This document shows positions 13,827-14,930 of a DNA stretch of 64,000 bases, in pieces. This DNA comes from Escherichia coli (GTDB lineage: Bacteria > Pseudomonadota > Gammaproteobacteria > Enterobacterales > Enterobacteriaceae). The stretch lies in the NCBI RefSeq assembly GCF_003018235.1, contig NZ_CP027437.1. The stretch is one strand, 5' to 3'. The notes under the pieces were generated by a model. The model had not been told where the DNA came from, did no database searches, and saw only the letters and a list, made by a program, of their open reading frames with translations. How positions within the stretch are numbered: position 1 is the stretch's first letter; each line of letters begins with the position of its first letter. Both the position numbers and the translations under genes were made by a program.

Positions 13827-14117
13827 TCACTCATCCAGCCGTTTAGTCGCGTCTTCATAAACGGCTGAGTTCTCTCTCTTACCAATAGCTATCACCAACA
13901 CGAGCAACTCTTTATCGTTAACCTGATAAACCAGGCGATATCCCTGTGTGCGCAGCTTAATTTTGTAGCAGTCCGGTAAATCCCGCAGTTTAGCCGATGG
14001 ATTGCGCGGCCTTTTCAGCACATCCTCAAGCTTTTTTTTAAATTGTTCCCGGACTGTCACGCCCAGTTTTTGCCACTCTTTCAGCGCCCGCGGATCAAAC
14101 GCCAGCTCATAGTTCAT
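13827..14117 (-). CDS. RelE/ParE-family mRNA interferase toxin
   Basis: 96-aa product from ATG 14117 (MNYELAFDPRALKEWQKLG...CYKIKLRTQGYRLVYQV...IGKRE); about 60% identical by eye to K-12 RelE as recalled; overlaps the antitoxin stop by 11 nt. Confidence 0.8.
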   Translation of the reverse strand: MNYELAFDPRALKEWQKLGVTVREQFKKKLEDVLKRPRNPSAKLRDLPDCYKIKLRTQGYRLVYQVNDKELLVLVIAIGKRENSAVYEDATKRLDE

Positions 14118-14349
14118 CCAGTCGGACCTTAATGGCCTCTTGTGGGTTGGCCAGTCGTTCCCTGACAGTGCGTAACAAGGCTTCTTCACTATCACTGACA
14201 GTGAGCGTTTTTACCGGCATTCGTCCATTTTCCGCAACGTACTGAAACAGCAGTCGCACTGCTTCAGTAGGCGTGATATTTAATTTTTCCAGCACCGCAT
14301 AAGCCTCATTTTTCAGTTTGTCATCCAGGCGGACGTTAAGTGTGGCCAT
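14107..14349 (-). CDS. RelB/DinJ-family antitoxin
   Basis: 80-aa ORF MATLNVRLDDKLKNEAYAVLEKLNITPTEAVRLL...; strong resemblance to K-12 RelB as recalled; RBS GGAGG upstream. Confidence 0.8.
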   Translation of the reverse strand: MATLNVRLDDKLKNEAYAVLEKLNITPTEAVRLLFQYVAENGRMPVKTLTVSDSEEALLRTVRERLANPQEAIKVRLDEL

Positions 14350-14373
14350 TATGCCTCCGGTAATTATGAAAAG

Positions 14374-14406
14374 TGTAATGCATTATAGCATTACATATGC
14401 ATTACA
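14374..14406. promoter_or_regulatory. candidate RelB/RelE operator: three copies of TGTAATGC/GCATTACA
   Basis: TGTAATGC at 14374-14381, GCATTACA at 14388-14395 and 14399-14406 (direct repeats one helical turn apart), 25-57 bp upstream of the antitoxin ATG. Confidence 0.45.
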
Positions 14407-14507
14407 TTCATTTCTGGAAAACGCCTCGCAAAAATGAGGACGACACGCAGGAATATGCCGTGGTGAAGATAGATATTGCGGTGATTTTACGAAGGGAGAA
14501 GAAAGCG

Positions 14508-14540: not shown

Positions 14541-14930
<390 letters not shown>

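Follow-up and report, generated by a model that had tools for sequence, protein, structure and literature searches.

A conserved three-copy repeat array overlapping a predicted promoter as the candidate autoregulatory operator of an nrdG-linked relBE paralogue in Escherichia coli

Introduction

The locus considered here raises a simple question: what is the function of three copies of the same 8-bp sequence that lie just upstream of an antitoxin gene? The gene is found in a 64,000-nucleotide stretch of Escherichia coli DNA (hereafter the window) that contains the region around nrdD-nrdG-cybC-pmbA, with a relBE gene pair situated between nrdG and cybC on the minus strand. The repeats could form an operator through which the antitoxin represses its own operon, they could act as RNA, they could bind some other regulator, they could be conserved merely as parts of a promoter, or they could have arisen by chance. 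Here we present a computational analysis of the array, its conservation and its likeness to the operator of the E. coli K-12 relBE operon. The findings suggest that the array is very likely an operator for autoregulation, the predicted ligand being RelB, and that the bound repressor would occlude the promoter.

Results and Discussion

A second relBE locus linked to nrdG

The antitoxin gene (14107..14349, minus strand) encodes an 80-aa protein of the RelB family with a ribbon-helix-helix (RHH) fold, the predicted repressor that binds the array. The protein matches the Pfam RelB family (E = 6e-16) and the NCBIfam E. coli RelB equivalog NF008412 at 130 bits (cut-off 96), and it is 48% identical to K-12 RelB over its full length. 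The toxin gene (13827..14117, minus strand), which starts with ATG and is intact here, encodes a 96-aa member of the RelE family, the predicted co-repressor, with matches to Pfam PF05016 (ParE/RelE) and to TIGR02385 (RelE_StbE). Because the toxin aligns without gaps to K-12 RelE (65% identity; both comparisons are with K-12 locus L036), residues K52, K54, R61, R81 and Y87 align identically, and the first three of these we take to be catalytic residues of RelE. Catalytic roles for R81 and Y87 are described in the literature (PMC2812701, PMC3507626). The two genes overlap by 11 nt (ATGAACTATGA). The RelB and RelE identities implied by the original prediction are borne out by these matches, and the locus has the composition of a RelBE module, namely a RelB-type antitoxin, a RelE-fold toxin with its catalytic residues, and an antitoxin-first bicistronic operon in which the genes overlap. 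As judged by sequence, this is a second, uncharacterised chromosomal relBE paralogue, linked to nrdG.

The relBE region of the window is 100% identical to several complete genomes. The promoter and the 5' end of relB were found in 452 of 5,426 complete E. coli genomes (about 8%), and at least 80% of a 901-bp query spanning the module was found in 390 of them; in E. coli genomes that do not carry the module, nrdG and cybC are adjacent. An orthologue is found at the corresponding position next to nrdG in 31 Enterobacteriaceae species, in genera that include Citrobacter, Enterobacter, Klebsiella, Kluyvera, Kosakonia, Trabulsiella and Pluralibacter, and also in Salmonella subsp. arizonae and diarizonae. 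The fact that the position is shared by 31 species argues that the module is not a recent insertion. In a search of plasmids, only 3 of 2,300 matching records exceeded 80% identity, all other plasmid RelBs falling below 60%; H26, the one listed record above 80%, is an entry of 4.9 Mb in the plasmid collection, and among the plasmid matches listed, full-length RelBs were about 38-49% identical. These data suggest that the nrdG-linked clade of relBE is essentially chromosomal.

In some relatives within Escherichia (L001-L004) relE has been inactivated while relB and the operator are intact. L001 carries a 2-bp deletion that shifts the reading frame of relE (86 aa), L002 and L003 have lost relE by a clean deletion between CTGGATGA repeats, one at the end of relB and the other at the end of relE, and relE of L004 has a premature stop after 26 aa. 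Moreover, the difference between the 452 genomes with operator and relB and the 390 genomes with most of the module suggests loss of the toxin in roughly 60 of the 452 E. coli carriers. Between genera (L005-L035), RelE (about 59-75% identical to the protein of the window) diverges faster than RelB (about 80-91%). Type II toxin-antitoxin pairs usually show the reverse, with the antitoxin diverging faster than the toxin.

A clustered array of three near-invariant repeats

An exact-match search of the window located TGTAATGC at 14374-14381 on the plus strand and at 14388-14395 and 14399-14406 on the minus strand. Thus all three copies that had been reported are present, in two orientations, and the array does lie 25-57 bp upstream of the antitoxin start (ATG at 14349, minus strand). 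The 11-bp spacing that had been remarked on, measured start to start, is correct for the two minus-strand copies, and it is only between these two direct copies that a spacing of one helical turn exists. Read in the orientation of the genes, the array is GAA-TGTAATGC-ATA-TGTAATGC-TATAAT-GCATTACA-C, that is, two direct copies followed by an inverted one. The last two copies, with the 6 bp between them as its centre, make up a perfect 22-bp palindrome, of which the proximal copy (14388..14395) is the upstream arm and the inverted copy (14374..14381, plus strand; GCATTACA in gene orientation) the downstream arm. The inverted copy covers the predicted transcription start, and the distal copy (14399..14406, minus strand) is located at roughly -31..-24 relative to it.

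Could such a cluster have formed by chance in AT-rich intergenic DNA? In keeping with this idea, TGTAATGC on its own is not significantly enriched in the window: 2.5 matches are expected and 6 occur, a number that is attained in 6 of 100 shuffles. It is therefore the clustering, rather than the number of copies, that matters. We used a cluster test that is agnostic to the motif, in which any 8-mer, on either strand, counts if at least three non-overlapping copies fall within 40 bp. By this test the array is the sole such site in 64 kb, and only 1 of 300 dinucleotide shuffles contained any triple cluster of this kind. Moreover, the 8-mers are near-invariant in 31 species while the bases adjacent to them vary. 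A chance origin of the cluster is excluded.

The conservation of the array was measured region by region in an alignment (-110..+60) of 31 nrdG-linked enterobacterial loci. Mean pairwise identity was 1.00 for the proximal copy, 0.99 for the inverted copy and 0.95 for the distal copy. The proximal TGTAATGC is invariant (31/31 orthologues), and the inverted GCATTACA is kept in 30 of 31. The distal copy, the least conserved of the three, reads TGTAATGC in 24 of 31, the remainder having TGTAATTC (four), TGTAATGT (two) or CGTAATGC (one), variants that differ at positions 1, 7 or 8 only. For comparison, mean pairwise identity in the same 31 loci was 0.56 for the 3-nt spacer, which occurs in nine variants, 0.53 for the 3 nt upstream of the array, 0.47 for the 14-nt 5' UTR and 0.63 for third codon positions of relB. 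The alignment shows strong purifying selection on the three TGTAATGC units in 31 enterobacterial species. Two genomes in which the module is not linked to nrdG, those of an Erwinia (L030) and a Volucribacter (L035), also carry the palindrome with it, and these are the two of four non-syntenic relatives from which the distal copy is absent. That both genomes keep the palindrome without the distal copy argues that the palindrome is the core of the array and that the distal copy is auxiliary.

A predicted extended -10 promoter at the palindrome dyad

The original prediction held that the array overlaps the likely promoter. Consistent with this, the only plausible promoter that we found is inside the array: an extended -10 element of the form TGC-TATAAT (TGCTATAAT; 14382..14390, minus strand) sits at the dyad of the palindrome, with the final three bases of the proximal copy, TGC, providing the TGn. 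This element, read from 14390 to 14382, is the one and only match to TGNTANNNT in the intergenic region between relB and cybC, and it has the TGnTATAAT-like form, upstream of the gene, of an extended -10 sigma-70 promoter. Note that a rule-based -35/-10 scan called no sigma-70 promoter here, the -35 being poor, and that there is no canonical -35; the case for the promoter thus rests on the extended -10 element together with its pattern of conservation. Among the 31 orthologues the 6-bp centre reads TATAAT, TAAACT, TATATT, TATTAT, TAAAAT or TATACT. Positions T1, A2 and T6 of the hexamer (TAnnnT) and the preceding TG are invariant in the 31 orthologues, and positions 3-5 drift. An asymmetry of this kind marks a -10 hexamer and is unlike the pattern of a symmetric protein contact. 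We regard the extended -10 promoter as a well-supported prediction from sequence, and transcription is predicted to start near 14375, in which case the array would span about -32 to +2. Downstream, a Shine-Dalgarno sequence, GGAGG (14354..14358, minus strand), ends 4 nt before the ATG within a GGAGGCATAATG block that is conserved across orthologues. (Of note, the TGNTANNNT extended -10 pattern is strongly under-represented across the window, with 56 matches against 95 +/- 10 from shuffles.)

Comparison with the K-12 relBE operator

Overgaard et al. (2008/2009, PMC2812701) defined relO, the operator of K-12 relBE, by hydroxyl-radical footprinting together with scanning mutagenesis. It reads TTGTAATGACAT abutting TTGTAATTACAA, and consists of four [A/T]TGT[A/C]A hexads arranged as two abutting 12-bp half-sites at about -10 to +17; one RelB dimer binds each half-site on a common face of the helix, and no spacing between the half-sites is tolerated (PMC2812701). 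The actual K-12 sequence agrees with the published relO and places the -10 (GATACT) immediately upstream of it. The original prediction had noted a likeness between the array and the K-12 operator, and the likeness is real, relO being built of [A/T]TGT[A/C]A hexads (PMC2812701 and the K-12 sequence). The repeated hexad of relO also recurs in the window: ATGTAA is found at 14407 to 14402 and at 14396 to 14391 on the minus strand, and GTGTAA, which deviates at position 1 only, at 14373-14378 on the plus strand.

When relO is aligned without gaps to the upstream region, it fits best to a 24-bp core, ATGTAATGCTAT abutting AATGCATTACAC (14373..14396, minus strand), which comprises two abutting inverted 12-bp sites and agrees with relO at 15 of 24 positions, a score that is modestly significant by itself (about 3% of random 120-bp segments of the window reach 15, p about 0.03). 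The outer TGTAA hexads of the core have the K-12 spacing, with 12 bp between them, and the sites are 12 bp apart centre to centre, a figure that depends on adopting the K-12 register; measured from the middles of the 8-mers, the inverted pair is 14 bp apart and hence off-phase. The differences from relO cluster in the inner 12 bp, and two of its features are not reproduced. In place of four hexads in two abutting half-sites, the inner hexads here are TGCTAT/AATGCA, which leaves one consensus hexad per presumed site, and in place of a location from -10 to about +17, the array lies at about -32 to +2 and contains the -10.

Operators that bridge the two arrangements are found in other genomes. 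The operator of Volucribacter L035, TTGTAATGC-CAAATT-GCATTACAA, matches relO at 18 of 24 positions and the core of the window at 19 of 24, and that of a member of the Thiotrichaceae (L034), TTGTATGTACAC abutting TTGTCATTACAA, matches relO at 19 of 24; the N-termini of both RelBs are nearly identical to that of the window RelB. These intermediates argue for homology rather than coincidence.

The protein side of the comparison is concordant. In K-12 RelB, positions 3, 5 and 7 of the beta-sheet are assigned base contacts, printed as 'S3, D5 and R7' (PMC2812701), whereas residue 5 is N by the K-12 sequence. K13 and S28 are assigned contacts with the backbone, and the substitutions R7A, K13A and S28L abolish binding (PMC2812701). 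The window RelB has T3, N5, R7, K13 and T28 at the contact positions, so that the base-contacting positions are conserved or, in the case of S3 to T3, conservatively changed. It also has both D53 and R65, residues proposed to mediate contact between RelB dimers (Boggild et al. 2012, PMC3507626). Of 35 orthologous loci, 29 have all seven residues (T3, N5, R7, K13, T28, D53 and R65), and four of the residues, N5, R7, K13 and R65, are invariant in all 35.

Taken as a whole, the locus resembles K-12 relBE, which is carried by the Qin prophage, in having a homologous RHH repressor with its toxin as co-repressor, a core of TGTAA hexads, and an operator overlapping the promoter of an operon in which the antitoxin gene comes first and the genes overlap. 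It differs in several respects. The K-12 operator has four consensus hexads (in the orientations > < > <) at -10 to +17, downstream of its -10, whereas here the inner two hexads are replaced by GC-TATAAT-GC, with the result that the -10 sits at the operator dyad; an extra direct copy 11 bp upstream brings the number of sites to three; the conserved unit is 8 bp (TGTAATGC) rather than 6 bp; and the locus lies in the chromosome beside nrdG and is ancient in Enterobacteriaceae, whereas K-12 relBE is prophage-borne.

Alternative explanations for the array

Might the conservation of the array reflect the promoter and nothing else, with the -10, the extended -10 and the spacer under constraint and no repressor bound? 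The TGCTATAAT element, with its T1/A2/T6 pattern, is indeed promoter-like. A promoter, though, requires no three identical 8-mers, and it would leave unexplained both the invariant GCATTACA downstream of the -10 and the fixation of TGTAA within a promoter spacer, a region that normally tolerates sequence change; meanwhile, free drift is seen in the 3-nt spacer and at the -35 position. We consider this explanation highly improbable. Only slight credence, likewise, can be given to the idea that the inverted repeats act as RNA, either as an intrinsic terminator for an upstream gene or as a structured leader, even though several observations are compatible with it: a terminator scan flags 14395 to 14374 (minus strand) as an 8-bp stem with a 6-nt loop and the tail CTTTTCATAA, the RNA from 14412 to 14360 folds at -14.8 kcal/mol (z = -4.4), and other genera have a co-oriented gene whose end lies about 77 bp ahead of relB. 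Because the arms are invariant, a covariation test is unable to separate a DNA site from an RNA hairpin. Of the 8 base pairs in the stem only 3 are G-C, unlike the G+C-rich stem and conserved U-tract of an intrinsic terminator, and the T-tail is replaced by ACATTCGATT, AATAATATT and others in orthologues. The predicted -10 lies in the hairpin loop, so that most of the hairpin would not be transcribed from that promoter. Changes in the distal copy (TGTAATTC in four loci) are uncompensated in a partner arm, and a hairpin does not account for the third, direct copy 11 bp away. Furthermore, E. coli has no co-oriented upstream gene left to terminate, cybC having a strong terminator of its own (14533 to 14508), and there was no Rfam match at E <= 1.

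A host-encoded regulator other than RelB is a very unlikely ligand for the repeats. TGTAA-type half-sites are known in other regulons, TyrR boxes among them, and a scan of viral contigs for the palindrome pattern (TGTAATGC-N6-GCATTACA, 22 bp) returned 8 matches, none of them beside a relative of RelB or RelE, with iteron-like arrays in L038 and L039; the palindrome alone is thus not diagnostic outside the clade. However, no TyrR-box-like match was found at the locus with up to 3 mismatches. The palindrome, moreover, stays with relB in non-syntenic genomes of different families (L030 and L035), which is better explained by a binder encoded within the module, and the repeat agrees with the hexad that experiments defined in K-12 relO, the closest homologue to have been characterised.

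Proposed mechanism and implications

The reading that we favour, and hold to be very likely correct, is that the array is the autoregulatory operator of the nrdG-linked relBE paralogue, bound by RelB. We propose that RelB dimers would bind the TGTAA(TGC) units through the N-terminal beta-ribbon (T3, N5 and R7), with two dimers on the 24-bp palindromic core (14373-14396) and a third dimer binding more weakly to the distal unit, 11 bp upstream and on about the same face of the helix. The bound repressor would extend over the spacer, the extended -10 (TGCTATAAT) and the transcription start, and in this way would block RNA polymerase. According to the model for K-12, neighbouring sites are occupied cooperatively by two RelB2E trimers, whereas two RelB2E2 tetramers clash (PMC3507626). 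By homology with K-12, sub-stoichiometric RelE is expected to strengthen cooperative binding here and excess RelE to release the complex, so repression is probably subject to conditional cooperativity tuned by RelE. Loss of RelB through Lon proteolysis would derepress the operon.

As a kind of element, an RHH-antitoxin operator that overlaps its own promoter is well known, and no new kind of mechanism is involved; as far as the sequence goes, what sets this one apart is a variant layout, with the -10 embedded at the dyad, an 8-bp conserved unit and a third site upstream. The operator of P22 Arc, the RHH protein that served as template for models of RelB on DNA (PMC2812701, PMC3507626), is likewise palindromic and about 21-22 bp long, and two RHH dimers bind it cooperatively, each on an asymmetric half-site, in neighbouring major grooves separated by about one helical turn; it differs from the array in that its recognition sequence is unrelated and that it lacks both a toxin co-repressor and a third site. 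In Phd/Doc, CcdAB, KacAT (PMC6698736) and VapBC (PMC3378870), as proposed here, the antitoxin binds repeats that overlap its own promoter, and how strongly the operon is repressed is expected to follow from the toxin:antitoxin ratio. Those systems differ in DNA-binding fold or in recognition sequence, and the dependence on the ratio has been demonstrated there, whereas here we infer it. A literature search, from whose coverage most subscription journals are absent so that absence of a report is not proof, returned no paper that links relBE with nrdG and none that contains the operator sequence.

The analysis provides a precise, testable map of operator and promoter for an uncharacterised relBE paralogue that is widespread next to nrdG. 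It also places relO-type operators in a series, from K-12 through L034 and L035 to the nrdG-linked clade, in which the RHH contact residues are essentially the same. With this series one can ask how operator geometry sets conditional cooperativity, the contrasts being four hexads against a palindrome around the -10, and two sites against three. A more speculative idea, which we think unlikely, is that the RelB of the nrdG-linked locus, together with the three sites of its operator, makes up a repressor unit that is complete in itself and outlives the toxin, with cross-talk or a shifted ratio for derepression. Because the operator shares the TGTAA hexad, and RelB the beta-ribbon contact residues, with K-12-type systems, cross-talk with prophage- or plasmid-borne relBE is possible, and if it occurs it would amount to cross-repression of relO or to anti-addiction against incoming RelE. 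Alternatively, owing to the third site, derepression could set in at a RelE:RelB ratio shifted from about 1:2 towards 1:3.

Neighbouring sequence and arrays in viral contigs

In other Enterobacteriaceae a gene for a PRD/EIIA-type regulator of about 450 aa (47/74..1423 in L016 and L026) ends (...SRF and stop, TTTTGA) about 77 bp upstream of relB. Of this gene, only a remnant of about 30 bp (TTTTGCGAGGCGTTTTCCAGAA; the window counterpart lies at about 14410-14440) is left in E. coli, before the cybC terminator. The non-coding block GAGGCGTT.TCCAGAA upstream of the array is unusually conserved, with a pairwise identity of 0.75. We considered the block (TTTTGAGAGGCGTT.TCCAGAA) as a further regulatory site; part of it is the stop-codon region of the neighbouring gene in other genera, which does not account for the other 20 bp or so. 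Beyond it, a terminator-like hairpin (ACGGCATATTCCTGCGTGTCGT and CCTCATTTTT; 14440-14461, minus strand) lies between the cybC terminator and the relB promoter, and a 10-nt inverted repeat, CCTCATTTTT/AAAAATGAGG (14304-14313 and 14430-14439), ties this hairpin to the relB coding region. Not being conserved in L003 or L004, this feature is probably a chance occurrence or a remnant. The cybC gene itself, for cytochrome b562, is an intact ORF of 128 aa (14541-14927, minus strand) followed by its strong terminator hairpin.

The iteron-like array in viral contig L038 (10770-10985), which recurs in L039, is unrelated and has no relative of RelB or RelE nearby. It consists of one TGTAATGC-N6-GCATTACA palindrome, three tandem 9-bp units (TGTAATGCt), two inverted copies and one more direct copy, and is probably an origin or the site of another regulator.
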